From: Candidatus Thorarchaeota archaeon
Lineage (GTDB): Archaea; Asgardarchaeota; Heimdallarchaeia; Hodarchaeales; Hodarchaeaceae
Reading direction: 5' to 3'
Length of the DNA: 64,000 nucleotides
Assembly: GCA_048882505.1 (NCBI GenBank)
Contig: JBHLRO010000006.1
Location: 25,485-89,484, forward strand
The position numbers and the translations under genes were made by a program. Below the pieces are notes generated by a model that searched no databases, was not told where the DNA came from, and saw nothing but the letters and a program-made list of their open reading frames with translations. This document shows positions 3,331-44,100 of the stretch, in pieces; positions within the stretch are counted from its first letter, which is position 1, and each line of letters opens with the position of its first letter.

Positions 3331-3601
3331 CTATATCACTTTAAGGATAGAAATAACATCCTATGAATCGTTAGATTTCCGAATTTACGTTTCAATATCT
3401 ATTTGAAACAAAACAGTTTTACGTTTCAATAGATACTTAAAACAAAATATTATTAAAATATTTTTCGAATAAGGCCATTGGGATTTTCGAATCGTCTTTC
3501 TTGTTGAGCAAACAGATTTAATTGAGGACCTGACGTATCTTACAAACGGAGACCCGATTTACATACCATTAGTTTCGTTTCAATTAAAGGTTGAAAGATT
3601 A

Positions 3602-19905: not shown

Positions 19906-21408
19906 TCAACTAGGGAAATACTCGTAATCGTTACGAACTTTAATTGAGTCCGCAATATAATTTTCAATCATTGATTTCTCAATTTTTGTTCCGAAAGAAG
20001 AATTGGCAGCCACGATATTCTTCCATTCCATGTAGTTTTCTTGGATTTCATTTTTGATATGGACAATTCGTTCTTCTAGCCTTGCCTGACCTAGATTTTG
20101 AACCACTGACCTAGCCTCGTCTACTTTTTCAAGTGCTTTCTCAATGTTTCCACGAATCAGCCAGATCTGTGCCTTAATGGCGAGAATTTCTGCCAATAAA
20201 GAGTTAGATTTTAGGTTGTCCGCGATTTGATACATTTCGTCTGTTAGACCATGCAGTTCGTTAATGACTTCGTCATCCTCAGCGATCTTCAGTTCAAGGA
20301 TTAAGAGAGAACATAAATTGAGATAGATGTCTATCTTTTCATAAGCAGATAAATTCTGAATTGTGAGCAATTTCTTAAAAATTGCCTGGCTTCTAGCCAG
20401 GTTCCTTACTCTTTTCCCTTGCATCGTTAGAAGTGCGTCAGTAAATTCGCAGAAATATGCAATCCTCTCCGAACGTGTCTGATTATAGAGTTCCTTTAAT
20501 TGTTCGTATTGGAATTTGGCTCCATCTATATTATTCTGACTTAGCTCGATCAACGCCAAATCTTTCAGGTCGTATCCCACAGAGTGATACATTTCCGTGT
20601 CCATTCTAATTTTTTTCGCCTTAGTAATGAGTTCTGCGGCTCGTTCATTATTTCCTGCTTTGAAATAGACTCTACCCAGTACTTCATGATAACACGCAAC
20701 TGCCCAGAGGGTACATCGTTCTTCGACAACCTGTAACGCCTGCTCACCATATTTCAGTGCTTCATCAAGCTCTCCTTTTCGTAGATGGATTTCGGATAAG
20801 GTTCCATATTGACAACACAGATAAGGTTTCTCAGTAGTTAATGCGATTGCAATACTCTTATGAATGCTTGAAATTCCCTTTTCCAGATCTCCAATTTCAC
20901 AATACATATTCCCCATGTCATTATACAACTTGGTTAGGATGTAGGGAAGATCTGCTTTCTCTCCAATGGCAATCGCCTTTTTCATGTAGTTTATTCCATC
21001 TGAATATTTCCCTTCAGCAAGGGCACAAAATGCCCTCACTCCATACGCGGTTGCCGCCCAAACCATTCCCGCTCGGTCTTCTGGAAGCGGATTTTCTTCA
21101 ATTTGCTTTAACACACCATCAATCACCTTGGTTGCTTCAAATCCCTTGTATTCGCGGAGTAACACCCTGCTTTGGACGATTTTCAACATCAGGTTTTCGA
21201 ATGGCGGTAATTCTCCATACTCTCTGTTAATTATAGGTGCAATGAGACTCCGTACTGTTGTTAAATCTCCGTGTAGAATTGTGAAAAATGCGTCATAGAT
21301 ATCGCCCTTTATTTGGTTTTGTTTCTTCAGCTCCTCTATTCGGTCATATGCTTGATTAATATTTCCCCCCCAAAAATCGGAAAAGATGTGATATTCCAAC
21401 TTCATCAT
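19906..21408 (-). CDS. TPR/alpha-solenoid repeat protein
   Basis: 500 aa with repeated 34-aa-like helical hairpins carrying W/L/G/Y/A/F/A/P-type positions (e.g. AIAIALTTEKPYLCCQYGTLSEIHLRKGELDEALKYGEQAL; LGRVYFKAGNNERAAELITKAKKI). No TM segments. It is divergent from the Rab-like GTPase gene. Confidence 0.55.
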   Translation of the reverse strand: MMKLEYHIFSDFWGGNINQAYDRIEELKKQNQIKGDIYDAFFTILHGDLTTVRSLIAPIINREYGELPPFENLMLKIVQSRVLLREYKGFEATKVIDGVLKQIEENPLPEDRAGMVWAATAYGVRAFCALAEGKYSDGINYMKKAIAIGEKADLPYILTKLYNDMGNMYCEIGDLEKGISSIHKSIAIALTTEKPYLCCQYGTLSEIHLRKGELDEALKYGEQALQVVEERCTLWAVACYHEVLGRVYFKAGNNERAAELITKAKKIRMDTEMYHSVGYDLKDLALIELSQNNIDGAKFQYEQLKELYNQTRSERIAYFCEFTDALLTMQGKRVRNLARSQAIFKKLLTIQNLSAYEKIDIYLNLCSLLILELKIAEDDEVINELHGLTDEMYQIADNLKSNSLLAEILAIKAQIWLIRGNIEKALEKVDEARSVVQNLGQARLEERIVHIKNEIQENYMEWKNIVAANSSFGTKIEKSMIENYIADSIKVRNDYEYFPS

Positions 21409-21923: not shown

Positions 21924-22553
21924 TTGGTAAAGGTTTTTGAAGGAGGAGAACCCCTCAAAATTGAACAGGTGGAAGAGCTGAACATAGACGAAATAATCCT
22001 CAAGATCTGCTCTATCGGTGATTACCAGGTGGGTAAAACCAGTCTTATTCACAGATATGCAGAGAATGTATTCAGTGAAGATTATTTACCTACCTTGGGG
22101 GTTGATATTACTACGAAACGTATTATTGTAGATGATACACCGATTAAATTGATTTTAATGGACACAGCAGGACAGGAACAGTTCGGTCGTATTCGTCGGT
22201 CGTATTTCCTAGGATGTGCAGGTTGTCTGATTGTCTACGATGTTACAAGGCGCGATTCTTTTGAATCTCTGGAACGATGGGTCAGAGAGTTTCGTTCCGG
22301 ACAACAACGAGAGAACAAGCCCATTGCGATTATAGGGAATAAGAACGATCTTAAGCAGGAGCGTCAGGTCGGGCGGCAGGAAGGGGAATCGTTTGCCAAG
22401 GTCATGGCAAATGTCTCCTTTTACGAATGTTCGGCGAAACTAGGGGGTCCTGAAATCCCCAGAATTTATGAAAATATTTCTCGTCAATACCTCAAATCGG
22501 TTCAATCGGGGCGGAATAGGGGGGACAAGGAACCGACTATGGTAACCCGATGA
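21924..22553 (+). CDS. Rab/Ras-like small GTPase
   Basis: 209 aa. Motifs: G1 GDYQVGKTSL, switch I LPTLGVDI, G3 DTAGQE, G4 GNKNDL, G5 ECSAK. The start is uncertain (TTG at 21924; a GGAGGAG ribosome-binding site sits at 21942-21948). Confidence 0.85.
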   Translation: MVKVFEGGEPLKIEQVEELNIDEIILKICSIGDYQVGKTSLIHRYAENVFSEDYLPTLGVDITTKRIIVDDTPIKLILMDTAGQEQFGRIRRSYFLGCAGCLIVYDVTRRDSFESLERWVREFRSGQQRENKPIAIIGNKNDLKQERQVGRQEGESFAKVMANVSFYECSAKLGGPEIPRIYENISRQYLKSVQSGRNRGDKEPTMVTR

Positions 22554-23676: not shown

Positions 23677-24564
23677 ATGAGCAGGATGACCACTCCAAGT
23701 GGAATTTATAGCGTGATGATATACAGCCTAGAATCACGTCGCATTCTCATTCATCGAATATATTCTCGGGATGAATCTGTGGTTAATAATCTAGACACGC
23801 TTTATTCAACCATTGTGTCCTTTAAAGGTGAAAACGAGGGGAAAGAAGATGTGTCAACGTTTCCAATGAAAACTAGAAAAATCTTAATTACTTCCGCTGA
23901 AAACTTAATCTTCATGATTGTGGTTGCACCCCATTATGGAACTATCGAAGCGGAAAAAATCCTATCTCATATCAGGGCATCATTTTTCCGTAAATATCCT
24001 CTTGGTGATTGCAACTGGCATTTTGATGAACACATGAACTATCTCGTGGGATTTAAAGCCGTCATAGATGAGATAGTGGAACACTTCGGCGACCCAAAGA
24101 CCATAGTAAAAATCGTGCTGATGGGAATAGACTACGCGGGCAAAACGACGTTAACACATGCTTACGCGGGGAGTAATTATCGAGATTATCTCCCTACAAT
24201 GGGACTGGACATTCTAAGAATAGAATACAAGAATAAACACATTCGTTTATGGGATCTTGGCGGGCAAATGCTGTTTAGAAGCTTATGGCCTAAGTTTGCG
24301 AATGAAGCATCTGGAATAATTTTTGTCGTTGATTCAGCCACAACCCGGTGGAGCGAAACCAAAGAAGTATTTGAAATCTCTCTGCTGTTTAAATTACCCT
24401 ATATCATATTTGCTAACAAACAGGATATAGTAAAACGAGCACAAAGCATTAACTTCATTGCGGAGAGGTTACAAGTTCCTGAAGAAAAAATAGTAAAAGG
24501 GAGTGCTTTATTGAACAAAGGGATCTATGAAGTCTTAGATGGGTTACTGGATGAAATTGGTTGA
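23677..24564 (+). CDS. Arf-like small GTPase with N-terminal longin/roadblock-like domain
   Basis: 295 aa. The N-terminal ~135 aa show beta-beta-alpha-beta-beta-alpha-like alternation (IYSVMIYSLESRRILIHRIY / VVNNLDTLYSTIV / ILITSAENLIFMIVVAP / TIEAEKILSHIRASFF). The C-terminal G-domain has G1 GIDYAGKTT, switch I PTMG, G3 WDLGGQ and G4 ANKQD, which are the Arf/Arl-type forms of these motifs. Confidence 0.8.
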   Translation: MSRMTTPSGIYSVMIYSLESRRILIHRIYSRDESVVNNLDTLYSTIVSFKGENEGKEDVSTFPMKTRKILITSAENLIFMIVVAPHYGTIEAEKILSHIRASFFRKYPLGDCNWHFDEHMNYLVGFKAVIDEIVEHFGDPKTIVKIVLMGIDYAGKTTLTHAYAGSNYRDYLPTMGLDILRIEYKNKHIRLWDLGGQMLFRSLWPKFANEASGIIFVVDSATTRWSETKEVFEISLLFKLPYIIFANKQDIVKRAQSINFIAERLQVPEEKIVKGSALLNKGIYEVLDGLLDEIG

Positions 24565-24627: not shown

Positions 24628-26361
24628 ATGATGGAAACATCAGAAGTGGCTACGATTGAGAAATTGCAGGAAAAGCTCAAATTCCGTCGAAAAGTTGAAA
24701 GGGCGATTGGGGATATTTCGACTTATCTTGTTTTTTCAAGTAGTTTCAACCTGTCCATCGAATATTTCCTCTCCGAAATCGCAGAACTATACCATTTCTA
24801 TTTTGTAGATGGGGCAGCTGTTTGTTTATTTGATGAACCTTCTAATGACCAAATTTCGGTACTTGGATGGAATTCAGAAAAAAATATAGATAATCGTGTA
24901 AATCTTAAGGAATTTCCGATTGGAAATTTCATCTGGTTCCAAAACCAGATCAAAGCAGGGCGCGAACTTGTTCTCACTGAAACTTATGAATTCTCGAATG
25001 AGGCCCAACCAGAAAAAGCCTTTTTTAGTGAACATACTATCAAATCCCTCATCGCAATCCCTATCTTCACTCCTGAATATATTGCGGGTACATTTGTGCT
25101 GGTTAGCCTATCCAACCAGGTGTGGCAGGAGGAAGATCTTCGTACCCTTAGATTGTTCGCTGAACTTTTGGGTACAGCAATCTTTCGAAAAAAAACGGAG
25201 GAGACGCTTTCAAAGGCGAGAGACTATTTAAAGGCTCAAATTGACCGAAAAACTGAGGATTTAAGCACTGAAAAGCAAAGAATCGAATTGATCCTGAATA
25301 CAATAAAGGATGGAGTCATCGTACTTGATCAAGATGGGAAGGTGACCATGGCTAATGAAACCTCAAAGCGATTTTTTAATCTGATTATGGATTTGCCGCT
25401 GATTATAGGCGTTAACCTAGTTTTAAGCACTGGAAATACGTTTTTTAGAACCATAAGAGGTCTCTTTTTGTCGTTTTTTAAAAACGAAGTGACAATTGAA
25501 CCTAAAAAGGGACTCCATCTTCAAATTGCCTCGGCTCGGGGAAAATATCCTGCCCTTCATACCTCCGGCATGATAATTGAGCTTCGAGACGTTACAGCGT
25601 TTATAGAGTTTGACAATATGCGAAAGCGATTCGTTTCTACCGTGAGTCATGAACTTCGAACCCCGATTACGGTTATTAATCAGTCCATCAATAATTATGA
25701 GAAATATGGAAATAAACTGCCAGAAAAGACCAAAACGAAATTATTCTCTGCAATCGCACGGAATTCCCGACTGCTTTATGAACTGGTGGAGGACCTACTT
25801 TTGATTTCTAAAATAGATGAACGAAGGATCGATGAGAGAGGATTTGAGCTCCATTGGCAGGACTACGATATAAAACAGATTATAGATGAAGTCACAACGC
25901 AATTAGAGCCCAGGGCCAAGGCCAAGGATATTAATATCCTTAAATCGGGTTTTGTGAAAGCGCCTATGTTTGGGGACCCGAATCGTGTTGCTCAGATATT
26001 TCGTGCATTAATTGATAATGCCATCAAATATTCTGGCAGTTCAAGTATAATTAGGATTACAGGAAAGGATGATTATACGGGAAAATACAATACGCAGGGA
26101 ATAAATGGAATTCTTGTTAAAGTTATCGATTCGGGGATTGGAATAGACGGGGAGGATCTACCAAAAGTATTTAATAGATTTTTTCGGGCCAAAAGTGTAA
26201 GTCACATATCGGGAACAGGATTAGGGTTAGGTATTGCTCGTGATCTTGTGAAGATGCATAAAGGGGAATTGTTTGTTGAAAGTGCCTTAGGAAAGGGAAC
26301 TATTACGCTTGTGTTTTTGCCTAGAATCACCGAGGCCGAGTTAAGACCTGAAGAGAGCTAA
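24628..26361 (+). CDS. cytoplasmic sensor histidine kinase (GAF-like + PAS + HisKA + HATPase_c)
   Basis: 577 aa with no TM segments. PAS: LILNTIKDGVIVLDQDGKVTMANETSKRFF. H-box: VSHELRTPITVI. N-box: DNAIKYS. G1: DSGIGI. G2: GTGLGLGIARDLVKMHKGELFVES. Confidence 0.9.
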   Translation: MMETSEVATIEKLQEKLKFRRKVERAIGDISTYLVFSSSFNLSIEYFLSEIAELYHFYFVDGAAVCLFDEPSNDQISVLGWNSEKNIDNRVNLKEFPIGNFIWFQNQIKAGRELVLTETYEFSNEAQPEKAFFSEHTIKSLIAIPIFTPEYIAGTFVLVSLSNQVWQEEDLRTLRLFAELLGTAIFRKKTEETLSKARDYLKAQIDRKTEDLSTEKQRIELILNTIKDGVIVLDQDGKVTMANETSKRFFNLIMDLPLIIGVNLVLSTGNTFFRTIRGLFLSFFKNEVTIEPKKGLHLQIASARGKYPALHTSGMIIELRDVTAFIEFDNMRKRFVSTVSHELRTPITVINQSINNYEKYGNKLPEKTKTKLFSAIARNSRLLYELVEDLLLISKIDERRIDERGFELHWQDYDIKQIIDEVTTQLEPRAKAKDINILKSGFVKAPMFGDPNRVAQIFRALIDNAIKYSGSSSIIRITGKDDYTGKYNTQGINGILVKVIDSGIGIDGEDLPKVFNRFFRAKSVSHISGTGLGLGIARDLVKMHKGELFVESALGKGTITLVFLPRITEAELRPEES

Positions 26362-26449: not shown

Positions 26450-26815
26450 ATGGTCGTAGAAGACAATCCTGATGTTTTGTTTAATCTAGTGGTAACGCTT
26501 GAAGCTAATGGATATGAAGCAGAAGTTGCCACAAATGGTAAGGAAGCCACAAGAGTTCTGTTGAAAAAAGATCCCGAATCACTACCAAGTCTAATAATCA
26601 GTGATATTATGATGCCGGAAATGGACGGGTACGAATTCTACCAATTTTTACAGGGGGATCAAGCATACAAGCATATACCCCTAATCTTTCTCTCCGCCCT
26701 CGCGACACCAGATGATATTCGCTTTGCGGAAATATTGGGTGCCAAAGATTACATAACAAAACCATATAATGAAGAAAAGTTGCTTACCTTGATTAGAGAG
26801 AAACTGGACGGGTAA
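26450..26815 (+). CDS. single-domain CheY-like response regulator (receiver only)
   Basis: 121 aa. MVVEDNPDVLFNLVVTLEANGYEAEVATNG...LIISDIMMPEMDGYEF...YITKPYN contains the phospho-acceptor Asp (DIMMP) and the conserved Lys (TKP). It lies 88 nt downstream of the HK gene on the same strand. Confidence 0.85.
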   Translation: MVVEDNPDVLFNLVVTLEANGYEAEVATNGKEATRVLLKKDPESLPSLIISDIMMPEMDGYEFYQFLQGDQAYKHIPLIFLSALATPDDIRFAEILGAKDYITKPYNEEKLLTLIREKLDG

Positions 26816-26822
26816 GTGATCC

Positions 26823-28067
26823 TCAAAATTCATAGAGGCCCCAACTGGCCGAGACTGTTCTCGGTTGTTGATCCACATGGATTCGTATGATTCTAGAGAA
26901 CCCGAAAACGTTTCCTAGACCTGTTAATAACCCTTCGATAACCCCTATAATTAGAAGTGAGCTTCCTTCTCGTGGTATCTCGATGTCTACCTGCATTCCA
27001 CCAGCAATATTACTTATTTCCACCCCAATTAGCTGATGAACTGGTTTATCCAGCATTTTACCTATATTTCCAGATAACCAATCCCTGAAGATATTGTTTG
27101 CCAGACTTTCGCCATAAGGAACGGAGAGCGCCTTAATTTTTTTCCAAAACTCTTTCGAGTCCGATTCAGGAGCTAGCTCTCCAGATAGGGTTTTCCATAC
27201 GTGGTTCTGAGTCTCAAAGAATATCGAACTTCTTAAAACATTGATCAATAGATCTTGGGGAATCATTCGGGCTAGAATTCGCATGAAGGCCAAGTAAAGA
27301 GAATCATCCAAGATGGAAGAAAGGAATACAGAATAACGGGGCCAGATAAACAGACCTTTAAAAGCCTTTAAGAAGTCTAAGAGATTGGGTTGGAGCTCGC
27401 TCACCTTGTTAGGATCATACTTATGAGCTAATAATCCGATGAAGGGCGATTCCTTCATTGCTTTGAGAACATTCATAATATCGGTTAGGTAAATGTACGC
27501 CTCTTCGAATTCGGCTGGGTTTTGGATATCAACCATGAAAATTAATGCTGTTAGGTTTTTCCACTTAAATTCGTCATAAACATGTTTTTTTACGTATTCC
27601 GTCTGTCCGCCTAAATCAAAAATGGTTAATTCAGTTTTTAAAACGTCTATGAACGAATTAAAAATAGAATAATCGACAGTTGGTCTGATCCTATCCAACT
27701 GTTCTTTGTTCCAGGAATCAAAAAATCCACGAATGGCTGTGGTCTTTCCTGCTTTTCTTAATCCTGCAACAACTATTTTAGGAAGTTTCCTCCTGGGTTT
27801 CTGAGAGGGAGGTGCGGGCAATTTGAATTCATGCGTAAACCATTCATCGAAAAACGAGTCAACTTTCTCTGTAACCTCAGGTGTAATGAAATCCAACTCT
27901 TGGTCTTTGAATCGCTCTTCAATACTATTCCCCAGATTTTCAATTATCGGATAGAGATCGTCCGAACTAGTACCTAGTGGAGTCATGACTGAGACCAGTA
28001 CAGAAGCGAACCTTTTTACATGTAGTTGGGAATTTGAAAAAACAAGCTCCTGAATGTCATCTTTCAC
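26823..28067 (-). CDS. Rag/Gtr-like small GTPase with C-terminal roadblock-like domain and N-terminal extension
   Basis: 414 aa. Motifs: G1 VVAGLRKAGKTT, G3 FDLGGQ, G4 LAHKYD. The HKxD form of G4 (instead of NKxD) is diagnostic of the Rag/Gtr family. The C-terminal ~150 aa carry a roadblock-like strand/helix pattern (VHQLIGVEISNIAGGMQVDIEI...SSLLIIGVIEGLLTGL). There is an N-terminal extension of about 95 aa. Confidence 0.7.
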   Translation of the reverse strand: MKDDIQELVFSNSQLHVKRFASVLVSVMTPLGTSSDDLYPIIENLGNSIEERFKDQELDFITPEVTEKVDSFFDEWFTHEFKLPAPPSQKPRRKLPKIVVAGLRKAGKTTAIRGFFDSWNKEQLDRIRPTVDYSIFNSFIDVLKTELTIFDLGGQTEYVKKHVYDEFKWKNLTALIFMVDIQNPAEFEEAYIYLTDIMNVLKAMKESPFIGLLAHKYDPNKVSELQPNLLDFLKAFKGLFIWPRYSVFLSSILDDSLYLAFMRILARMIPQDLLINVLRSSIFFETQNHVWKTLSGELAPESDSKEFWKKIKALSVPYGESLANNIFRDWLSGNIGKMLDKPVHQLIGVEISNIAGGMQVDIEIPREGSSLLIIGVIEGLLTGLGNVFGFSRIIRIHVDQQPRTVSASWGLYEF

Positions 28068-28548
28068 GATTTCCTTAGAGAACTGAATTAATGCCGAAAG
28101 AAATCCCGATATTAGCTGACTGTCATGGTCCAGAAAGAACGAGGGTTCAAAGTTTTTTTGATAAAGCTCTATCCCTGTGTCAATGTTTATGACTGAAATC
28201 CGTTTAATGGAAGATTGAGAAGGATCTGACGTCGTTGATTTCGCTCCAGTCTGCGAAGATTGAGGATTACAACTTACGTTATGAATACTTTAGTCGAGAA
28301 ATATCCCGTACAATGTATTTCCGAACTGGAATACTATGATGTTCATGTGACCGATTCTCCTTAAGGGTGAAGGAAATTCGTCTGATGCACTGAAACTTGT
28401 CAAACCATATTTATTAACTTAGTCATATTTATCGATTTCAGAAATTCTCTAGCAGGTTTTCAAATGTTCACTAAAAGCAAAATGTTTTGAAGAAGTATTG
28501 ATATGATAAAGAAAGCATAAGTGAACGATCCCCATTGGAGTGAAGTAA

Positions 28549-29268
28549 ATGGGAAAAGACAACAACGGTCAGGAATACGAATCGTTTTATGATCTTTGGG
28601 AACGTATAAAAAGCGAAGAATTAACTATTTTACCAGAAGAATCCAAAACCCATATTGAAGAGAATTTATTCCTTGATGAACAAGGAGGGGAGTATTTTAT
28701 GAAGATTGTATTAGCAGGGGATGGTGCCGTTGGAAAAACTTCCTTAAGACGAAGTTTTTTAGGCGAGGATTTTTCATTTGACTACCAAACGACAATCGGA
28801 GCCGATTTTGCCACCCATCGGGAACAAATAGCCAATCGATCCGTGAAATTTGTAATTTGGGATCTGGCAGGCCAACCCCAGTTTCATCAGGTAAGAAAAA
28901 CGTTCTATTCCGGGGCACACGGAGCACTTGTTGTATGTGATTTAACCAATCCCACCTCGTTCGAAAACCTGAAGCACTGGATAAATGAACTATGGCGATA
29001 CAATGCGGAAGGGCCCGTGCCCTTTGTCATTGTGGGAAACAAATGCGATCTTAGGGATTTGGGATATGCAAGAATTTCTGATAAAAAGATTCATTCTGTT
29101 ACAAAAATCATTAATGAAGAAACCTCACGGAAAAGTGGGTTTGGCGTCAAATCCATTACCACAAGTGCACGAACGGGGGAAGGAGTAATAGAAGCGTTCA
29201 AGCAGTTAGCTGTCCAAATTATTGCACATCGTAACTACATCAGGAGAAAGCGTCAAAAACCCGAGTAA
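28549..29268 (+). CDS. Rab-like small GTPase with ~50-aa N-terminal extension
   Basis: 239 aa. Motifs: G1 GDGAVGKTSL, switch I YQTTIGADF, G3 WDLAGQ, G4 GNKCDL, G5 TSAR. Confidence 0.85.
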   Translation: MGKDNNGQEYESFYDLWERIKSEELTILPEESKTHIEENLFLDEQGGEYFMKIVLAGDGAVGKTSLRRSFLGEDFSFDYQTTIGADFATHREQIANRSVKFVIWDLAGQPQFHQVRKTFYSGAHGALVVCDLTNPTSFENLKHWINELWRYNAEGPVPFVIVGNKCDLRDLGYARISDKKIHSVTKIINEETSRKSGFGVKSITTSARTGEGVIEAFKQLAVQIIAHRNYIRRKRQKPE

Positions 29269-29363: not shown

Positions 29364-30263
29364 CTAGCGTAAATTAGAGGAGGTAGTTGATAGAATTTTG
29401 ACAAAATTATCCCAGTTCAGATTCTCAGAGAACTGGTTTCCGTGCTTATAGTCTGTTGCCATCTTTTCAAATTCCTCCTTTATTCTGAGGGACGCGAGAT
29501 AGTTAATTTTCTGAGCTAGAAGGACGATCATAAATTGGCGTTTGCCCCCTCTAACTTCTGGATCTTCAATCGTATCAAAGTAAATATAGCCGTCTCGGTC
29601 GATGTTTGCGATTCGTAATAAAACCCCTTGTGGCTCATAATAATCCAGCTGGCCGTAGACTGAGACCGCGGTTTGAAACAGCTGGGTGCCAAGCTGGCGT
29701 AAGTCAAACTTAGTGTTGGAATCTGATGGAAAGATATCTCTTACTTTGGGACCATAAGCTTCATCCCATATCACATTAAAGAGTATAACTTCTCCTCTTT
29801 CACTTGGGGTCATTGAAGAACCGAGCTCATTTCGCAAGGATGTAAGCAGGTTTTTTTCGATTTGTTTACCCAGTTCTTTGTTTTTTATACTCCGCTGGAT
29901 CTTTCCGGCAATTGATGATAACAAATCCTTGTCGTTGAAGGGTTTGGTGATATAATCATCTACTCCAAGTATTTTGCCAAAACGTACATCCTCAGGAGAT
30001 GCTTTCGCTGTAAGAAAGATAAAAGGGATAAAACTCCACGCCGGGTTATCAGAAACACGGCTGAAAAATTCGTATCCGTCCATTTCCGGCATCATGATGT
30101 CACAGAGGAAGAGGTCTGGGGGTTCATCGAGTTCAGATAACATGTTGAAGGCTTCGATGCCATTTTTTGCGCCTATCGGCCTGTATCCATTGAATTCCAA
30201 CAATAATTCCAGGTTGTAGAGGATTTTAGCATTATCTTCAATGATAAATATTGTAGGTTTCAT
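29364..30263 (-). CDS. response regulator: receiver domain fused to C-terminal roadblock/longin-like alpha/beta domain
   Basis: 299 aa. The N-terminal REC is MKPTIFIIEDNAKILYNLELLLEFNGYRPIG...LFLCDIMMPEMDGYEFF...YITKPFN, with high identity to the 26450 receiver. The C-terminal ~150 aa show a beta-alpha-beta-beta-alpha pattern (EVILFNVIWDEAYGPKV / LRQLGTQLFQTAVSVYGQL / GVLLRIANIDRDGYIYFDTI / RQFMIVLLAQK / INYLASLRIKEEFEKM). It lies 52 nt downstream of the hybrid HK on the same strand. Confidence 0.75.
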   Translation of the reverse strand: MKPTIFIIEDNAKILYNLELLLEFNGYRPIGAKNGIEAFNMLSELDEPPDLFLCDIMMPEMDGYEFFSRVSDNPAWSFIPFIFLTAKASPEDVRFGKILGVDDYITKPFNDKDLLSSIAGKIQRSIKNKELGKQIEKNLLTSLRNELGSSMTPSERGEVILFNVIWDEAYGPKVRDIFPSDSNTKFDLRQLGTQLFQTAVSVYGQLDYYEPQGVLLRIANIDRDGYIYFDTIEDPEVRGGKRQFMIVLLAQKINYLASLRIKEEFEKMATDYKHGNQFSENLNWDNFVKILSTTSSNLR

Positions 30264-30315: not shown

Positions 30316-32394
30316 CTAATTGACCAATACGGGGAGAAAAACTGAAAAAGTTGATCCTTTGCCTAATTCGCTGTCCACGAAGACTTCCCCGTTTTGAATT
30401 GCTGCTAATTCCTTTGCGATCGATAATCCCAGCCCGGTTCCAGGCACATCCTTCACATTGCTTGCTCTGAAAAAGCGATCAAATATATAGGGCATGTCCC
30501 TTTCACTTATGCCGATTCCAGCATCATTAACTTGAATTAATAGACCATCAAGTTTTTTCGGGTTGTATTTCCCCTGATAATCAGTTATAGCCCCAATCGT
30601 AACAGTCGTTCTTTCAGCAGAGTATTTAATGGCATTATCCATTAGGATGCGTAACATTTGGCCAAGTCTTTTCGAATCTCCCACTATTTCAACTGCAGGA
30701 GGTATATTGGTGCTAATTGTGATATTCTTTACCAGTCGTGCGGGCTCTAATTGGATTAATACTTCGCTTATAATGTCCCAAAGCGCATATGTGCTTACAT
30801 CCAGCTTCAATTCACCGCTCTCTATTCTGGATACGATCAAAAGATCTTCTATCATTTGATTCAGAACAGTAGAACTCTCTGCAACCATATCAACAATACT
30901 ATCAATCTGTGCCGCTGATAACTGGTCGCGGTAGTTCTGTAAATTCCTAATTGAGAGGTCAATCGCGGTAATTGGAGTTCTGAGTTCATGAGACACCATT
31001 GAGATAAATTGCTCTCTGAGTCGATCCAGTTCCACCAGAGAAGTCACATCGCGGACTGTGATTACAATGCCAATAGGAGGGTTTGGTGGATTTAATACCA
31101 TAGAGGAGGTAAGCTGAAGGAAAAGCCCTGGGTGAGGCTCGATGGTTTTGTATTCCTTCTTTTGAGAAAAAAATGCCTTGGCAATCGCCTCGCCAAATGG
31201 ATGTCCGATACTGGGGATATCGCGGAGGAGTGGAGGTAACTCCTTGTTATAAATCCTCTTGTAGAATTTCTTGAATATTTCATTAACATAATAAACTCGG
31301 CCTTCAGTGTTAAAAACAACGACCCCATCAGGGATGGTTTCCACAATCCTCTCAATTCGCTGTTTTTCTTCCGTTAAGTTTTGTGTGGCTATTTCGACTT
31401 TTCGTGCCAAGGAATCTTTGGTTCGTTTTAACGCTTCTTCAGCCATCTTCCGCTTGGTGATGTCTTCAAAACTGCCTTCATAGTATAATACCGACCCCTG
31501 TTCATCTTTTATTGCTTTCGCATTCTCCCGGATAAAGACCGTGGAGCCATCCAGTCTCTTAAGCTTCTGTTCAAACCCTCTAATCTCGTCTGCTCTCTCG
31601 ATCAATTCCCGAAAATCTTGTCTCGGATAGTCCATCTTGGTCGATAACTCATTCATATTAATGGCACGCATTTCTTCCAATGAGGAAAACCCCATCATTC
31701 GTATGAATTCGGCATTTGCTGCAAGTAGCTTTCCGCCTGGTGTCATTCGATAAAGTCCGATGGGCATACCTTCAAATAACGTGCGATACCTTTTTTCGCT
31801 TTGTTTAAGCGCTTCCTCCATTGATTGACGCTCAATGAGTTGATCTCGGAGTTTATTAACTAATTGCCTTCTTTCTTTCTCCAGATGCAGCCTCTCAAGG
31901 GTATCCCGGATCTTAATTAGCACATCCTGGACATCAAAGGGTTTAACTATGTAAGCTGATGCCCCCATGTTTAGGGCACCGATTGCTGATTCCTGTGACG
32001 CATATCCCGTTATGATCATCATCACAAGATCTGGTTGCAATTCCTTCATCACTTTTAACAAGCGAATGCCATCAAGATCAGGTAATCTAATGTCTAAAAG
32101 GGCAATATCGTATATTCTTTCTTTCAGCTTATCCATAGCATCTTTCCCAGTATATGCGGAATTCGCAATATATCCGGCTTTCTTAAAAATTAGTTTTAGT
32201 AAACTACATGTATTATCATCATCATCATCTACGATCAGAATTCTCCCTGTGATCTTATTGTAAGTACGTTGAATAGTTCGGGCAGATTCATCTAGAATGG
32301 ATTTGTCAAGTTCTTTAAGGTTTTCTGCGTTATTTAGAAGTAATGAGAAATCCTTTGGCGAATTCGTGTTTTGATGTTCCCTGTTATTTTCCAT
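30316..32394 (-). CDS. cytoplasmic hybrid sensor histidine kinase (REC + 2xPAS + HisKA + HATPase_c)
   Basis: 692 aa. REC: GRILIVDDDDDN...DIALLDIRLPDLDG...IVKPFD. PAS: KRYRTLFEGMPIGLYRMTPGGKLLAAN and QRIERIVETIPDGVVVFNTEGRVYYVN. H-box: VSHELRTPITAI. N-box: DNAIKYS. G1: NDAGIGIS. G2: GTGLGLSIAKEL. Confidence 0.9.
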   Translation of the reverse strand: MENNREHQNTNSPKDFSLLLNNAENLKELDKSILDESARTIQRTYNKITGRILIVDDDDDNTCSLLKLIFKKAGYIANSAYTGKDAMDKLKERIYDIALLDIRLPDLDGIRLLKVMKELQPDLVMMIITGYASQESAIGALNMGASAYIVKPFDVQDVLIKIRDTLERLHLEKERRQLVNKLRDQLIERQSMEEALKQSEKRYRTLFEGMPIGLYRMTPGGKLLAANAEFIRMMGFSSLEEMRAINMNELSTKMDYPRQDFRELIERADEIRGFEQKLKRLDGSTVFIRENAKAIKDEQGSVLYYEGSFEDITKRKMAEEALKRTKDSLARKVEIATQNLTEEKQRIERIVETIPDGVVVFNTEGRVYYVNEIFKKFYKRIYNKELPPLLRDIPSIGHPFGEAIAKAFFSQKKEYKTIEPHPGLFLQLTSSMVLNPPNPPIGIVITVRDVTSLVELDRLREQFISMVSHELRTPITAIDLSIRNLQNYRDQLSAAQIDSIVDMVAESSTVLNQMIEDLLIVSRIESGELKLDVSTYALWDIISEVLIQLEPARLVKNITISTNIPPAVEIVGDSKRLGQMLRILMDNAIKYSAERTTVTIGAITDYQGKYNPKKLDGLLIQVNDAGIGISERDMPYIFDRFFRASNVKDVPGTGLGLSIAKELAAIQNGEVFVDSELGKGSTFSVFLPVLVN

Positions 32395-33238: not shown

Positions 33239-34684
33239 ATGATACATAGCAATTCCCAACAATCACCCGCAGTTCAACAAGTAGAACTATCGTTTATTAG
33301 TGATTTCACTAAATATTGGGACAAAATTAGGGATTTCTGTTCTGTTGAAAGGAGTACAGTTCGTTCTGTGTGTGCTAAACTATTTGAGGATTGGACAAAA
33401 CCTTTTTTCGAGAGGTGGTCAACAACAGAACTAATCAAACCTTACTTGGTTTGGCGAAGTAATTATGCTTCCCGATTTTCTTCCTTCGGTCTTCTGTATA
33501 ATGGGAAAATGCTGCTTATACCTCACAAACTCGTTTCTAATATTCTGGACTCCCAGGTCAGGGAGCATGTGTACTTTAGGGAGTTTACAGACATTAAAAC
33601 CTTCTTCTATTACCTATGGCAAGTAACTCAGGTTCAACAGAATTTTCCTCTAAATGCAAGTGATCTGAAACTTATCAGTTTTTATACGAGTTCGGGTTTT
33701 ATGAGAACTTCTGCGCGATTCCCCTCGCAAGAACTATTAGCCGACGTGCTTTCTTGTAACCCAAGAACCATTTCTACACGAAGTACGCGGTTGTACAACC
33801 ACTACATCCTAACACATACATATTTAATCGATGTTGCCAAACTGGGTTATCAAACCATGGCATTTCTCTCACAAGATCCTTCAGATATACACGGTTCTCT
33901 TACGAAATATTGCCTTGGAACCCTTCCGATTGACTTAGGATTAACTCGGGGAAATCTAAAGATTTTTCAAATTCCGTATTGGAAACATGATGTTTTTAAC
34001 GCCGTTACTGATAGTTTAGGCCCTGTTGCGGGATATAATTTAACCCAATTATCCATCAGTTGGAACCTCAGCCAGTTATCGACAAACCCAGACTCAAGAT
34101 GGTTAAACGAACCACCAGTTCTCGTTGGAATCGCCTGGGATGATACAGACATCATTCTGGAGGATATTGGGGTCGATCTTAATTTGGTTCCAGATATCCA
34201 ACAGAGTCCAGGAATCTCGAAATCACAAGCCAAACTATTGTCCTTTTACTATTCCCACGGCACAGTTCAAGATAAACAACTATCAGAATTCCTTGAATTA
34301 GACCCTCATAGTGTTTTTCGCCTTTGGCAAGACATTTTGGATAGAAACGTGGCGTACCCGTATACACACGTCAGCAATATAGGTTTAGATTTGTCTCTGT
34401 GGGTGATGCTTCTCGGAAAAACGAAGCAAGACAATTCGGATCTCGTTTCAAAAGTCGTTGCTCACCTTCGCTATTTCCCATATGCACGGACATTCTATTC
34501 CTCAGGGAATTCGAACGAGGGTACGTTTTTGGTTGCAGAGATTAGAATTCCGTCACTTTGGTATAAGGATTTTGCTACGCATTGGGACAACCTTACTAAT
34601 TACGAATTAATCCCCAAAGTGGGCGTATTAACACCCGAATTTCACTTGAAACGAAATATAAATGTTTTAGACACTCTTTTTTAG
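33239..34684 (+). CDS. hypothetical protein with two HTH-like modules
   Basis: 481 aa, soluble. Contains a repeated module: LKLISFYTSSGFMRTSARFPSQELLADVLSCNPRTISTRSTRL and AKLLSFYYSHGTVQDKQLSEFLELDPHSVFRLWQDILDRNV (LSFYxS...helix-turn-helix-like). Confidence 0.45.
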   Translation: MIHSNSQQSPAVQQVELSFISDFTKYWDKIRDFCSVERSTVRSVCAKLFEDWTKPFFERWSTTELIKPYLVWRSNYASRFSSFGLLYNGKMLLIPHKLVSNILDSQVREHVYFREFTDIKTFFYYLWQVTQVQQNFPLNASDLKLISFYTSSGFMRTSARFPSQELLADVLSCNPRTISTRSTRLYNHYILTHTYLIDVAKLGYQTMAFLSQDPSDIHGSLTKYCLGTLPIDLGLTRGNLKIFQIPYWKHDVFNAVTDSLGPVAGYNLTQLSISWNLSQLSTNPDSRWLNEPPVLVGIAWDDTDIILEDIGVDLNLVPDIQQSPGISKSQAKLLSFYYSHGTVQDKQLSEFLELDPHSVFRLWQDILDRNVAYPYTHVSNIGLDLSLWVMLLGKTKQDNSDLVSKVVAHLRYFPYARTFYSSGNSNEGTFLVAEIRIPSLWYKDFATHWDNLTNYELIPKVGVLTPEFHLKRNINVLDTLF

Positions 34685-34861: not shown

Positions 34862-36046
34862 TCATAATGCCGAATACACGGGGACAACTGGGAACGTTTC
34901 GCGAACTATTCGATTTAAGGTTTCTGACTCTTCAGTAGAGGAATCCATCTCTGGAAAAGTTTTATATAATGACGCAATACGATTGGTTAAGATATCTAGC
35001 GAGTTTTTAAGAGCTTTAGAAGTGGTAGAAGTGACTATAATATAGCTAAGATTCTGTTGACGGTTTATTAAAAGGACTGAATCCTCCAGATGTAGTTCAT
35101 GAAGACCTGAGGCAAGAGCGTCAACTACTGCTTTCATTCCTGGAAAAAAGGCATCTCGATTGTGATGGGGAACTGTGATCCAACTGTACGAAAAGAGTGG
35201 TTCCGTAGTGTCCGTGCGGATAATTACGAGTCGTGAGGAGTGAATGGGTAATACAAACAATAGTTTGGGTTCTGAGACAAAGGCAATCATGAAGAGAAAA
35301 GATCCAAACAAATGGGCTATTTCTATAAGTCCAATGTCTTGACCTACCAGTTGGGTAAACAGCATAATGAGAGCAAGAAGATACACAAACGCTCCTATCA
35401 ATGCAATACTAGCCTTGTTCCTTATATCATCCGGTGCATTCAGGTAGAGAGTCCCCGTGTACAGAAGCAAGAGAAGGATTCGAAACCCCCAGAAGGAGAG
35501 CTGGATGTAATTTAGAAACACTGACACCGTCCTGGCCTCCACACCAGGAAGTAATGCGAAGACCACCATTCCAGTCGAGAGGATCGCGTATACGATTAGC
35601 TTAATGGGATCTAAGGATGGCCGATGCGCGGAATCGACAAAGATAACCAAGAATATGGTAAATCCAGTCAAAATGAAAAATCCCGCAAAACCAAGAACAT
35701 CTGCGAGGGTCATGGATAATACTTCCCCCTTACTCGTTACTTTATACAGAGGAATCCCAATATCGGTCATTAGAACATTTATTGATAGGCTATTGGGATC
35801 AAAACCAAGTAAAAGAATTTGTAATCCAAGTAACATAAACCAGGCAAACAAACCAGCAAAATCCAAGGAAAGCCACAAGAATTGCCTGTATTGCGTATCT
35901 ATCCATCTTCTAAATCCAAAAACAAGGATTATGGAGATTATAAAGGCATGAAACAATGATATCAAGGAAATAAAGAGGAAATCTGCCATTACTTTCAAGT
36001 CCTCTGGCATAGTAAGGATAGATTGCCCTTCCTTGCCCCCCTCCAC
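34862..36046 (-). CDS. polytopic membrane protein with C-terminal cytoplasmic roadblock/LC7-like domain
   Basis: 394 aa with about 8 TM helices in residues 20-290. The C-terminal ~100 aa show the pattern RLVIIRTDTTEPLFSY / FPGMKAVVDALASGL / SVLLINRQQNLSYIIV / KALKNSLDILTNRIASLY, matching roadblock beta-alpha-beta-beta-alpha topology. Confidence 0.5.
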   Translation of the reverse strand: MEGGKEGQSILTMPEDLKVMADFLFISLISLFHAFIISIILVFGFRRWIDTQYRQFLWLSLDFAGLFAWFMLLGLQILLLGFDPNSLSINVLMTDIGIPLYKVTSKGEVLSMTLADVLGFAGFFILTGFTIFLVIFVDSAHRPSLDPIKLIVYAILSTGMVVFALLPGVEARTVSVFLNYIQLSFWGFRILLLLLYTGTLYLNAPDDIRNKASIALIGAFVYLLALIMLFTQLVGQDIGLIEIAHLFGSFLFMIAFVSEPKLLFVLPIHSSRLVIIRTDTTEPLFSYSWITVPHHNRDAFFPGMKAVVDALASGLHELHLEDSVLLINRQQNLSYIIVTSTTSKALKNSLDILTNRIASLYKTFPEMDSSTEESETLNRIVRETFPVVPVYSAL

Positions 36047-41137: not shown

Positions 41138-44100
41138 GTGATGAAACTTGAATGTAAGTCTTATTTTAGGTTTTTTATTATAAACATCGAGTTTTTGGTT
41201 TTGGTCAGTCTGATAACGATAACTATGATAACCTTGACACCACAACTGCAACCATCGAATTCTTATTCAAACACGGATCAGAAACAGTCCAGTTTTGAGA
41301 TAGATGAACCCTTGAATACTCCTGTGGATAGGGCAACACCTTCAAATCTCGATAAAACAGTTTCCTCTGCTTTATGGTCTGGATCTTTATCCTTTCAAGA
41401 AAATCAGGGGCAATTTGGAAATTCTGCTGTTCGATATTATTTTAACGGAAGGGATTTTGGAATTGCGTTTTCCAGGACCGGGGTGACATATAAACTAACA
41501 TCTGCCCTTGCTCAAGAGAAAAATATTCAGGCTTCTTTGTTTGATCTCGAATCAAGTTATGGACACGAACATCCATCCTTATCGTCTGGCCTGAGCACTT
41601 ATATTAACATAGTTTTCGATAACTCCAACGCTGTTCAGCCAATGGGTCGTGAAGTGCATACCCATATGAGAAACTACCTGATCGGAAATGCTCCCGACTC
41701 ATGGGTGACAGGGGTGAGGAGTTATGCTAGAGTTTTGTATGAAGAGTTATATTCTGGAGTCGATTTAATTTACTATTTTACTGCTGACGGACTCAAATAT
41801 GAGTTTAGATTGCAGAACGGGGCGGATCCCGCCATCATTCGTATGCGGTACAAAGGAGTAGACGAGCTTGAGATCGATGAACTGGGAAATTTGGTCGCCA
41901 GGACGGCTGCGGGCCCTCTCCAAGACCAGAATTTGTTGATTTATCAGAATACAGCTCATGGGCAGCATGAGATCCGGGGACAGTTTATCCTTTTGGATAG
42001 GTTGACTGTTGGCTTTCAAATACTCGAACCTTACGATCAAAACAGACCGCTTATCATCGATCCTCTGGTCTGGTCAACTTTCCTGGGCGGTGCTTCAGGA
42101 GACTTAGGGTATGCACTTGCACTGGACACGGCAGATAATGTTTACGTGACAGGGCACACAGCAGATAGCATTCCCGATTTTCCTACTACCCCAGGTGCTT
42201 TTAATACGAGCCACAGTGGTTTCGACGACGTATTTGTTGCAAAATTCAGTGCGAATGGGACTAGATTGCTCTATTCTACGTTCATAGGAGGAAGTGGACC
42301 TGATTTCGGCTATGCTCTAACACTGGACAATGCCAATAATACATACTTGACTGGACTTACGACAAATCATACCATCGATTTTCCCACTACTGCAGGGGCG
42401 GTTAATACTACCCACAACGGGAATTCCGACGTATTTGTTACGAAACTCAGCGCAGACGGAACCAGTTTGCTGTTTTCTACTCTTTTGGGGGGTAGCGGGG
42501 TCGATGTGGGTTATGCAATTGCGCTGGACCCCTCCAATAATGTCTACGTAACGGGATACACAGAGGACGCCGCGACCGATTTTCCTACGACGGTAGGTGC
42601 CTTTAACACGAGTCACAATGGTGGAAATGATGTATTTGTTACGAAACTCAGCGCGGATGGCACTAGCTTACTCTATTCCACGTTTTTAGGGGGTAGCGGG
42701 ATGGACGAGGGCCGTGCCCTGATGGTAGACGGAGCCATGAATACTTATGTGACGGGGCACACGGAAGATCATACGACCGACTTTCCCACCACTGTAGGTG
42801 CGATCAACACGAGTCATAACGGGATTTTCGATGTATTTATCTTAAAATTAAGCCCCTCCGGGGGAAGCTTATTGTATTCCACCTTTCTCGGAGGTAGTGG
42901 GGTAGATTTCGGTTATGCCTTAGCTATGGATGGTGCGAATAATGTTTATATTACTGGGTCAACAGATGACGCCACAACAGACTTTCCCACCACCGTAGGA
43001 GCAGTTAACACGACCCACAGCGGAGGTTCGGATGTATATATTGCGATAATCAGTGCAGACGGTACGAGCTTACGTTACTCTACATTTTTGGGAGGGAGCG
43101 GACTTGATCAGGGTAATGCTATCGCCTTAGATAGTGATAATAATATATATGTAACGGGATTCACGGAAGACCATACGACTGATTTTCCCGTTACTACGGT
43201 AAGTTATGACGGTACTCATAATGGAGCGGAGGATGTCTTTGTCAGCAAGCTTGACGCAAATGGTACGGCCCTGAGATATAGTACATTCCTGGGAGGCAGC
43301 GGAAGCGAACGGGGAAATGCCCTTGCGGTGAATGATGTAAATATGGTTTACGTTGGAGGTAACACAGGTGACGCCATTATCGATTTTCCTGCCACCCCAG
43401 GCGCCGTAAATACGACCCATAATGGTGGCACTGATTTATTTGCTTTCTTAATTCGAATTCCCACCGTGACATCCCCTCCAGTAGGATTATCTGCTGGTTT
43501 AGCTGGAAATCAAGGAGTTGTTTTATTTTGGAACGCACCTAGTAATGATGGAGATGCGCCGGTTACTTCATACCGCATTTATAGGAGTACAACGAGTGGA
43601 AGCTATGGGGTATTACTTGCAGAGACTTCAATCCTCAAACTCTGGTTCAATGATTCAACAGTGGTTAGTGGACAGACCTATTATTACGTAGCGACCGCGA
43701 TAAACGGGATGGGGGAAAGTGTTTGGTCAAATGAGGTCAGTATTACACTTCTTGCCGCAATCACTATCCCAGGCGTGCCGCAGAATGTTTCCACCTCTGC
43801 AGGAAGACACTTTATCGTAATTACTTGGGATCTGCCAACAAGTGATGGGGGATCCGCTATCATTCATTACAAAGTTTATCGGGGGACAATGAGTGGCGAA
43901 TACCTATTACTCGGTATCTCGATTAATCGTCAGTTCAACGATACTACAGCGGTCGGGGGGATAACCTATTATTATACGGTGACTGCGCTTAATGCTGTTG
44001 GGGAGAGTTTCCTTTCCATGGAGACCAGCAAGACAGCACTTATGGAAATGACTACGATTACCACTACAACAATCGTTACGACAAGCTCAACGACTGCCAC

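Follow-up and report, generated by a model that had tools for sequence, protein, structure and literature searches.

What a Rag-like GTPase is made of, and what it does beside a two-component system, is the question raised by a minus-strand gene in a 64,000-nucleotide stretch of the Hodarchaeales (Asgard) contig JBHLRO010000006.1, hereafter called the window. A reading of this DNA made from its letters alone (the sequence-only reading) had seen, in the open reading frame (ORF) at 26823..28067, a Rag/Gtr-type GTPase ending in a roadblock domain and preceded by about 95 residues with no recognizable motif. In this work, the gene is described as a member of a small family of three-domain GTPases, in which a Rag-like G domain stands between a longin-type domain and a V4R/Bet3-type domain (an architecture denoted 'LGV'), encoded within a conserved cluster of two-component genes. 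This reading as a whole, including the mechanism that we infer from it, is put forward with moderate confidence.

The gene and its G domain

The ORF is real: it is present in the ORF list of the window with 414 codons and a GTG start, and contains the C-terminal strings quoted by the sequence-only reading, as well as the proposed G1 (VVAGLRKAGKTT), G3 (FDLGGQ) and G4 (LAHKYD) motifs, all of them invariant across 20 homologues. A search of 5.8 billion clusters found 25 homologues of the GTPase, with E values down to 1e-275, and the gene is far from a chance reading frame. A protein identical to the 414-residue product has been deposited at NCBI (MFW9854899.1), under the name 'ADP-ribosylation factor-like protein' and the label Ca. 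Thorarchaeota.

Among Pfam models, Gtr1_RagA ranks first, with about 65 bits (64.9-65.2 over residues 152-329 of the reconstructed 469-residue protein described below; cut-off 22), followed by Arf (42.4), SRPRB (26.2) and Ras (25.7): the lead over Arf is 23 bits in the window protein and 15-50 bits in its relatives, and the order is the same in all distant relatives scanned. The Gtr1_RagA match covers the profile up to position 182 of 232, corresponding to the end of the G domain. Human RagA (a query sequence 100% identical to 6CES_A) was aligned by BLASTP, from its residue 9 to 191, with residues 152-332 of the window protein (E = 7e-9), SSILDDSLYLAF..MIP lying opposite the RagA segment ending in ..LIP; this alignment stops where the G domain of RagA gives way to its C-terminal roadblock domain. 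The Rag-type G5/helix alpha-5 pattern, [ST]SIxDxSLxxAW...LIP, is present in the window protein, and its HKYD is aligned with HKMD of RagA and HKFD of PDB entry 8YL2, deposited as 'RagA-like small GTPase from Asgard Lokiarchaeota, LokiRagO'.

The same entry was the best match in PDB, both by sequence (phmmer, 4e-11, with Sar1 second at 2.5e-8 and then Gtr2, Gtr1 and RagA/C) and by Foldseek comparison of a full-length AlphaFold2 (AF2) model (1.3e-9, followed by Gtr1/Gtr2, 8ZLA (LokiRagM) and RagA/C, all of which rank above Arl and Arf). MglA chains were absent from the best 60 of 72 PDB sequence matches (E<=10) and from the 50 best Foldseek matches, while in NCBIfam only the generic small_GTP model was matched, under its cut-off. 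With Gtr1_RagA scoring best and 8YL2, Gtr1/2 and RagA/C as structural matches, a G domain of the Rag/Gtr type, and not of the Arf, SR-beta or MglA type, is supported; the profile scoring against Gtr1_RagA and Arf, suggested by the sequence-only reading as a way to disprove it, placed the Rag model on top.

In 21 aligned sequences, invariant positions include G157, G162, K163, D206-Q210, H270, K271 and D273, with G1 reading GxxxxGKT. As read from this alignment, the P-loop, the switch-I Thr, DLGGQ, HKYD and the Rag-type G5/alpha-5 are intact, and the domain, with K163, T185, D206 and Q210 in place, looks catalytically competent.

Homologues of the GTPase are 467-470 residues long, and open with a conserved segment, M-x7-IKRISIINxxTGIExYxK..PSFFLEHDNQLISGFISALIxFS, which is missing from the 414-residue ORF. 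In the window, the frame above the GTG is open for 74 codons, up to 28292, and the 55 codons between the GTG and 28232 encode exactly this start segment, which is 76-81% identical to that of the closest homologues, the corresponding values being 73-76% in the G domain and 45-48% over the remaining N-terminal domain. Because the Met codon of the family reads ACG in the window, and no ATG, GTG or TTG is found in the 55-codon stretch, both the ORF and the NCBI annotation are, on comparison with homologous sequences, truncated, and the coding region spans 26823..28232, or 469 codons. In-frame near-cognate codons are available (ACG at 28235 and 28232; ATT at 28208, 28199 and 28184), with GGAG 8-11 nt upstream of the ACG codons, while the TATA-like box found 25-30 nt before the ATG of relatives is not evident in the window. 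The N-terminal extension held to be without motif is therefore a product of the ORF boundary, being the back part of a domain of about 135 residues, predicted to be of longin type.

Two other views of the gene start have to be weighed. That the annotated 414-residue product is a real protein, an N-terminally shortened isoform translated from the GTG at 28067, is very unlikely: this GTG is the first canonical start codon of the frame and the one used by NCBI, has AAGGA 4 nt upstream, and finds a parallel in the L003 orthologue, likewise called from an internal TTG, but it falls inside predicted helix alpha-1, so that the product would be deprived of beta-1, beta-2 and most of alpha-1, and the codons skipped are under strong amino-acid conservation. 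Somewhat more weight, though still little, is given to the window copy being a pseudogene, a decaying and non-functional remnant which has lost its start, in which case no mechanism could be proposed for the locus. The ACG at the family start, with no canonical codon at or near it, the missing TATA-like box and the in-frame TAA stops of the L003/L004 and L007 orthologues would all fit a decaying gene. Decay is, however, difficult to reconcile with 469 codons running without frameshift or stop, with the location of the best-conserved part of the protein upstream of the GTG, and with the GGAG and near-cognate codons at hand; moreover, the ACG may be a single T-to-C consensus error in a metagenome-assembled genome. 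The reconstructed 469-codon gene is the form retained below.

Lesions were also observed in orthologues. A TAA is found in frame in L003 (also in L004) at about 7900-8000, at codon ~31, where it replaces the Ser of PSFFLEHD, and another in L007 at 3544-3546, after DLGGQER in switch II; codons flanking both are still conserved. Together with the missing start codon in the window, lesions concern 3 of about 9 GTPase copies, and could represent decay, population variants or assembly errors. A changed genetic code was considered as their source and rejected, since neighboring genes of the same loci are intact.

Domains flanking the G domain

In the full-length AF2 model (mean predicted local distance difference test score, pLDDT, 69.9), the N-terminal region is formed by strands at residues 11-16 and 22-27, a helix at 32-54, strands within 62-85, and helices at 90-107 and 118-133, that is, by elements ordered beta-beta-alpha-beta-beta-beta-alpha-alpha from residue 11 to 133. 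This is the order of longin domains, whereas a roadblock domain begins with a helix, and the N-terminal domain is, on the model, longin-type. Its profile (alignment A4) matched nothing in Pfam or PDB; by hhalign, it showed a weak similarity to the N-terminal domain of the neighboring Arf-like protein (E 9e-4, probability 22%, 98 columns) and none to the longin domain of the receiver-longin protein described below.

The C-terminal domain was modelled by AF2 over 144 residues from a 14-sequence alignment, with a pLDDT of 83.9 and a predicted TM-score (pTM) of 0.82. Its elements (H,H,H,E,E,H,E,E) follow the order alpha-alpha-alpha-beta-beta-alpha-beta-beta, which fits the alpha-alpha-beta-beta-alpha-beta-beta order, two-layer alpha/beta fold and four-stranded sheet of the V4R/Bet3 superfold. 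Foldseek comparison of this model with PDB returned TRAPPC6 (2BJN, 1.5e-3), 3KXC and TRAPPC3 (6AQ3), and then many H-NOX domains, at marginal TM-scores of 0.44-0.48; no roadblock, LAMTOR, MglB or Rag C-terminal domain was found among the 50 best matches. The family profile, compared by hhalign with the roadblock domain of RagA (residues 183-313), gave a probability of 0.06%. With human TRAPPC3 (query sequence verified), only the C..G helix was aligned, not significantly (E 0.097 over 15 columns).

At the sequence level, the family has no Pfam V4R or TRAPP match, and MetOD1 (PF18546) is the sole Pfam family matched by more than one member (6 out of 18, best E 8.7e-4, under cut-off), the window protein itself not being one of them. 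Alignment profiles of the domain (A3, A5) found nothing significant among PDB sequences and Pfam, MetOD1 being again recurrent. The wider family is characterized by the signature C-P-x(8-14)-C-x-[IV]-T-H-G-x3-G-L-G-x3-G ... [QE]-T-x-I-R-[ND]-x4-C-x-F, and its three-Cys cluster is found in 14 of 18 aligned members, with I, G and S at the same positions in the window protein and in those closely related to it: to judge from the alignment, the three Cys common to the wider family and to V4R/MetOD1 have been lost in the window subfamily. The window domain carries the motif EGLLTGLGNVFG at 26901-26936 and a conserved C-terminal end, SWGLYEF. One family member is labelled by JGI as 'predicted hydrocarbon binding protein', which we take to be the COG label for V4R proteins. 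MetOD1 has been described as similar to HNOB and V4R domains, having the three-Cys cluster in common with the latter (PMC5847659); Thor-TRAPPC3, V4R (PoxR) and H-NOX are structurally related, and the Zn site is lost in mouse TRAPPC3 (Tran et al., PMC10933270).

Searching 1.84 billion representatives with the C-terminal profile selected 22 proteins, and in every length-complete one scanned the domain lies at the end of a GTPase of 466-540 residues, for which Gtr1_RagA is the best model. These exhaustive searches (22 and 6 matches) returned the same GTPase family or its fragments only, with no bridge to free-standing V4R proteins. Overall, the predicted structure makes it quite probable that the C-terminal domain belongs to the V4R/MetOD1/Bet3 superfold; the roadblock domain of the sequence-only reading, for which a structure prediction of the C-terminus had been proposed as a check, did not withstand that check. 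The string 'IFFETQN' following helix alpha-5 was considered as a remnant of the first roadblock strand (compare 'LLFERAT' of RagA) and discarded, being helical in the model and aligned with a helical 'ILQAxxxLYP' of the wider family.

Two more conventional identities can be evaluated against these data. An Arf-family GTPase (Arf, Arl, Sar or SR-beta-like), as the NCBI name says, is quite unlikely. Both the Arf and SRPRB matches exceed their cut-offs, Sar1 chains come second in the PDB sequence search, and DxGGQ is common to Arf; the Rag model nevertheless prevails over Arf in the window protein and in its relatives, G4 has HKxD in place of NKxD, G5/alpha-5 carries the Rag-type motif, and AF2 predicts a folded N-terminal domain in place of an amphipathic helix. 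In published trees (PMC11914678), such Asgard 'Arf-like' proteins are not part of the Arf clade but branch close to the clades of Rag and Rup2. A canonical Rag/Gtr orthologue, composed of a G domain, a C-terminal roadblock dimerisation domain and an unrelated N-terminal extension, is more improbable still, even though the G domain is Rag-type, longin-GTPase-roadblock proteins exist in Lokiarchaeia (PMC10933270), the match of one homologue, P0025, proceeds to position 215 of the Gtr1_RagA profile, and the core alpha-beta-beta-alpha-beta-beta string seen in the C-terminal domain occurs in the roadblock pattern too. It is contradicted by structural matches headed by TRAPPC6, TRAPPC3 and H-NOX, with roadblock-type domains missing from the 50 best, by the recurrent MetOD1 matches and the V4R-type Cys signature of the family, by the hhalign result, and by the Gtr1_RagA match of the window protein, which stops at position 182.

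As far as its members are named, the family is small and confined to Hodarchaeales, every available name among them being of this order. Longin-GTPase ('LG') and longin-GTPase-roadblock ('LGR') architectures have been published for the Lokiarchaeon MK-D1 (Tran et al. 2024, PMC10933270). The homologue P0025, from Promethearchaeota, can be aligned over the longin and G domains, scores 126.8 bits with Gtr1_RagA up to profile position 215 of 232, and has a C-terminus which, by eye, is roadblock-like in alignment A1; on this sequence evidence it looks like an LGR protein, and the present family is an LGR scaffold with a V4R-type module in place of the roadblock module. All named full-length homologues and related genome loci are from Hodarchaeales/Hodarchaeota, while the public record of the window protein says Thorarchaeota; the taxon label of MFW9854899.1, 'Candidatus Thorarchaeota', is probably outdated or wrong.

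A gene cluster shared with two-component systems

The neighborhood of the gene was compared among the window and seven other loci (L001, L003, L005, L006, L008, L027 and L028), whose GTPases are 49-66% identical to the window protein. In the window, the cluster runs from 19.9 to 32.4 kb (Table 1) and includes a candidate GTPase-activating protein (GAP). Orthologues of the histidine kinase and of the receiver accompany the GTPase in the window and in all seven other loci; the receiver, 64-75% identical, is in the cluster at every locus examined, abutting the 3' end of the GTPase gene in convergent orientation in five of the eight (window, L001, L005, L006 and L027) and lying upstream, beyond the kinase gene, in the other three. 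The two-component neighborhood pointed out by the sequence-only reading is thus conserved across loci and not incidental. An orthologue of the Arf-like GTPase is found with the GTPase in all loci but L005, whose 4.9-kb contig ends inside the kinase gene, and a Rab-like GTPase is present at most loci examined. Rab-like genes, hybrid kinases and receiver proteins of 300 residues recur in L003, L006, L027 and L028, and, with the exception of one relative, the pair of hybrid kinase and receiver-longin gene is found wherever the contig reaches far enough, the window included. Tandem GTPase paralogues, with 25-28% identity, are found in L003, L007, L008 and L028; the two copies in L005 are closer, with 57% and 59% identity to the window protein, while no GTPase paralogue is adjacent to the window gene.

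Table 1. Features of the GTPase gene and of the surrounding cluster (window positions; residues numbered on the 469-codon gene)
Feature	Position	Strand	Basis or remark
TPR (tetratricopeptide repeat) protein	19906-21408		Pfam
Rab-like GTPase	21924-22553	+	Pfam
Arf-like GTPase with N-terminal longin-like domain; conserved cluster member	23677..24564	+	Pfam, locus comparison
Histidine kinase (GAF, PAS, HisKA, HATPase), paired with CheY-like receiver; conserved beside GTPase	24628..26361	+	
Stand-alone CheY-like receiver response regulator	26450..26815	+	Convergent with GTPase, 7 nt between stop codons
Whole GTPase gene, reconstructed: 469 codons plus stop (26823-26825)	26823..28232	-	Alignment to homologues of 467-470 residues; full-length AF2 model
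Predicted V4R/MetOD1/Bet3(TRAPPC3)-superfold domain, residues 326-469	26826..27257	-	AF2, Foldseek, MetOD1 matches in relatives
Rag/Gtr-type G domain, residues 151-325	27258..27782	-	Pfam Gtr1_RagA, RagA alignment, Foldseek
G5 and helix alpha-5, SSILDDSLYLAFMRILARMIP, residues 305-325, aligned with RagA	27258..27320	-	RagA BLASTP
G4, HKYD, residues 270-273, Rag-type HKxD	27414..27425	-	Alignment
G3, DLGGQ, residues 206-210, catalytic-position Gln invariant	27603..27617	-	Alignment
G1/P-loop, GLRKAGKTT, residues 157-165	27738..27764	-	Alignment
Predicted longin-type domain, residues ~1-135	27828..28232	-	AF2 element order
GTG start used by ORF finder and NCBI annotation (414-residue product), inside helix alpha-1 of N-terminal domain	28065..28067	-	AF2 model
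ACG codon aligned with family initiator Met	28230..28232	-	Homologue alignment
Rab/Ras-like GTPase, divergent from GTPase gene; conserved cluster member	28549..29268	+	
Receiver domain plus folliculin/SMCR8/C9orf72-type longin domain; candidate phospho-regulated GAP	29364..30263	-	
Hybrid histidine kinase (REC, PAS, PAS, HisKA, HATPase), upstream of receiver-longin gene	30316..32394	-	

The 299-residue receiver-longin protein (RR299) carries, in its C-terminal half, the invariant motifs WDExxGP and RGGxR, which read WDEAYGP (29748-29768) and RGGKR (29538-29552) in the window. Its match to Pfam Folliculin is weak (E 0.12), and its sole PDB profile match is, at E 1.5, the longin domain of C9orf72, in an alignment that includes WD..GP. 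In a 2025 paper (PMC12290439), folliculin, SMCR8, NPRL2 and Asgard longins are described as having an arginine finger and, in the beta-1/beta-2 loop, a GP motif; the paper asks which Asgard GTPases are the partners of the GP-motif longins and makes no mention of receiver domains. The receiver-longin family, of about 295 residues, is found throughout Asgard archaea (Hod-, Heimdall-, Loki-, Hel-, Odin- and Hermodarchaeota), where its members are annotated merely as 'response regulator' or 'PleD family', and could be phospho-controlled GAPs for small GTPases. In L027, which contains the closest homologue of the GTPase, a receiver-domain gene of 309 codons, taken to be a putative RR299 homologue (P0062) on account of its length and of a longest contig of 42,935 nt in common with the GTPase homologue P0004, lies directly upstream of the GTPase gene in the same orientation.

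From these elements a mechanism can be proposed. The GTPase would be a GTP/GDP switch with no arginine finger of its own, and would thus depend on regulators acting in trans; as with other longin-fused Asgard GTPases (PMC10933270 supplement), it probably needs a GAP. The two-component systems would set its nucleotide state or its partners: conservation of the cluster suggests that signals from histidine kinases are passed to the GTPase by the phosphorylatable single-domain receiver, by the receiver-longin protein in the role of a phospho-controlled GAP, or by both. The V4R/Bet3-type domain would replace the Rag roadblock in providing a platform for dimerisation, and a small hydrophobic ligand may bind to it, while the N-terminal longin domain would serve as a platform for GTPase docking.

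Several data weigh against this picture. The receiver-longin family is pan-Asgard while the GTPase family is limited to Hodarchaeales, so that the usual partner of the former must be another GTPase; furthermore, at most loci the receiver-longin gene is nearest to the Rab-like gene and the hybrid kinase. The C-terminal fold is derived from a predicted structure with marginal Foldseek matches (E 1.5e-3, TM about 0.47), and no sequence-profile match of that domain reaches a curated threshold, while the longin assignment comes solely from a predicted element order, at a pLDDT of 45-79. Finally, the window copy has no canonical start codon and two orthologues contain in-frame TAA stops; expression of the window copy may not yield the full-length protein.

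Further observations concern the neighboring genes. The Rab/Ras GTPases at 21924-22553 and 28549-29268, which flank the cluster, score 161 and 138 bits with the Ras model and have N-terminal extensions of 25-50 residues; at other loci, orthologues of the latter accompany the genes of the hybrid kinase and of the receiver-longin protein. The Arf-like protein at 23677-24564 has an N-terminal domain of about 130 residues with a longin-like pattern, and its orthologues in L003 (3859-5379) and L008 (4404-5864) feature an additional C-terminal extension of about 180 residues, missing in the window copy and in L001 and L006. Just past the cluster, an ORF of 481 codons (33239-34684, plus strand) has no Pfam match and a weak hint of HTH_36. 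It is followed on the minus strand (34862-36046) by a gene for a 394-residue multi-pass membrane protein, also with no Pfam match, whose last 110 residues or so (LVIIRTDTTEPLFSYSW ... SKALKNSLDILTNRIASLYKTF) seem, by eye, to form a beta-beta-alpha-beta-beta-beta-alpha unit of longin/roadblock type; if so, this protein would be a membrane-anchored platform domain near the GTPase cluster. Three NosD/right-handed beta-helix proteins (9034-10632, 36525-39395 and 44263-45570, plus strand) and a large beta-propeller/fn3 protein (41138-44185) are also encoded around the cluster, and are probably surface proteins with no relation to the GTPase.

Relation to known systems

The likeness to eukaryotic Rag/Gtr proteins (RagA-D, Gtr1/Gtr2; PF04670) consists of the best-scoring Gtr1_RagA model, HKxD, DxGGQ and the [ST]SIxDxSLxxA...IP motif of G5/alpha-5, as well as the lack of a lipid-anchor motif and the presence of a second globular domain straight after the G domain. 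In contrast with Rag/Gtr, the predicted C-terminus is V4R/Bet3-type, a longin-type domain is added at the N-terminus, and the genomic partners are two-component systems, with no Ragulator/EGO or TOR context; unlike Rag heterodimers, no adjacent paralogue is found in the window, although some relatives carry two or three in tandem. LokiRagO and LokiRagM (8YL2, 8ZLA, 9M28), for which no paper was found under PDB 8YL2 or either name, are the closest in solved structure and sequence, and have HKxDP in common with the GTPase. Like the LG and LGR proteins of MK-D1, the family has a longin domain before the G domain; unlike LGR, the roadblock module is exchanged for a V4R/MetOD1-like one, and the distribution is, as far as named, limited to Hodarchaeales. 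The combination of longin, Rag-G and V4R-type domains is not described in the literature searched.

A longin, a Bet3-type domain and a small GTPase also make up the catalytic core of TRAPP (TRAPPC3/Bet3, TRAPPC6 and the longin subunits TRAPPC1 and TRAPPC4). The signature of the family resembles the Cys cluster and G-x3-G helix of V4R/MetOD1, and the Cys (Zn) site is lost in mouse TRAPPC3 (PMC10933270), as it is in the window subfamily. Unlike TRAPP, however, the three parts are here fused in one chain, and the GTPase is Rag-type and not Rab-type.

Linkage of a GTPase and of longin/roadblock-type regulators to histidine kinase and receiver proteins is known from Myxococcus, for MglA/MglB with the RomR and Frz response regulators (PMC9481161, PMC13408092). 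As in MglA/RomR-type modules, a receiver-domain protein is here a candidate direct regulator of the GTPase; the present system differs from them in the Rag-like clade of the GTPase, in the fusion of its regulators with a receiver or with the GTPase itself, and in a candidate GAP which is a folliculin/SMCR8-type longin and not MglB. The conservons of Streptomyces, comprising a sensor kinase, a roadblock protein, a DUF742 protein and a Ras-like GTPase, are a comparable module linked to a phosphorelay. With folliculin-FNIP, GATOR1, C9orf72-SMCR8 and the 'GP-motif' Asgard longins (PMC12290439), the receiver-longin protein shares the WD..GP loop and RGGxR at the region of the folliculin arginine finger; folliculin and GATOR1 act on Rag GTPases. 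In contrast to the GP-motif longins of that paper, it is fused to a receiver, and the similarity stays below threshold (E 0.12 and 1.5).

The sequence-only reading had presented the gene as a prokaryotic Rag-like protein. The Rag-like G domain stands, but the headline is not new, since Rag-like GTPases are already known in Asgard archaea (PMC10933270; PMC12290439) and have been crystallised (8YL2, 8ZLA, 9M28). Within the literature searched, what appears to be new is the Hodarchaeales-restricted longin/Rag-G/V4R-type architecture, its conserved association with two-component systems and with a folliculin-type longin fused to a receiver, and the mis-annotated gene start. The public annotation is wrong three times, in its Arf-like name, in its length of 414 residues and, probably, in its assignment to Thorarchaeota.

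A more far-reaching interpretation, to which we assign a small chance, is that the protein is a single-chain, ancestor-like fusion, in which a Rag-type GTPase lies between a longin and a Bet3/TRAPPC3-type domain, the fold types of the TRAPP exchange-factor core. It would dimerise via the Bet3-type domain, have its own nucleotide pocket acted upon by the SWGLYEF tail or by the longin, and be switched off by the receiver-fused folliculin-type longin GAP under histidine-kinase control. If so, the fusion would hold parts that eukaryotes later divided between two systems, the folliculin-Rag axis of nutrient signalling would have its archaeal forerunner in the cluster, connected to a two-component system, and the GP-motif Asgard longins would gain an identified GTPase partner.

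In eukaryotes, a central part in nutrient signalling and in the identity of membranes is played by Rag/Gtr GTPases, longin and roadblock platforms, TRAPP subunits and folliculin-type GAPs, and how they were wired before eukaryotes is in question. In Hodarchaeales, which are among the proposed closest relatives of eukaryotes, a Rag-type G domain is joined to a domain predicted to be V4R/TRAPPC3-type, and not to a roadblock. In the conserved cluster described here, GTPases of three kinds (Rag-like, Arf-like and Rab-like) are linked with histidine kinases and with a receiver-fused longin of putative folliculin type, which makes the question of which GTPases are the partners of GP-motif Asgard longins (PMC12290439) directly testable.

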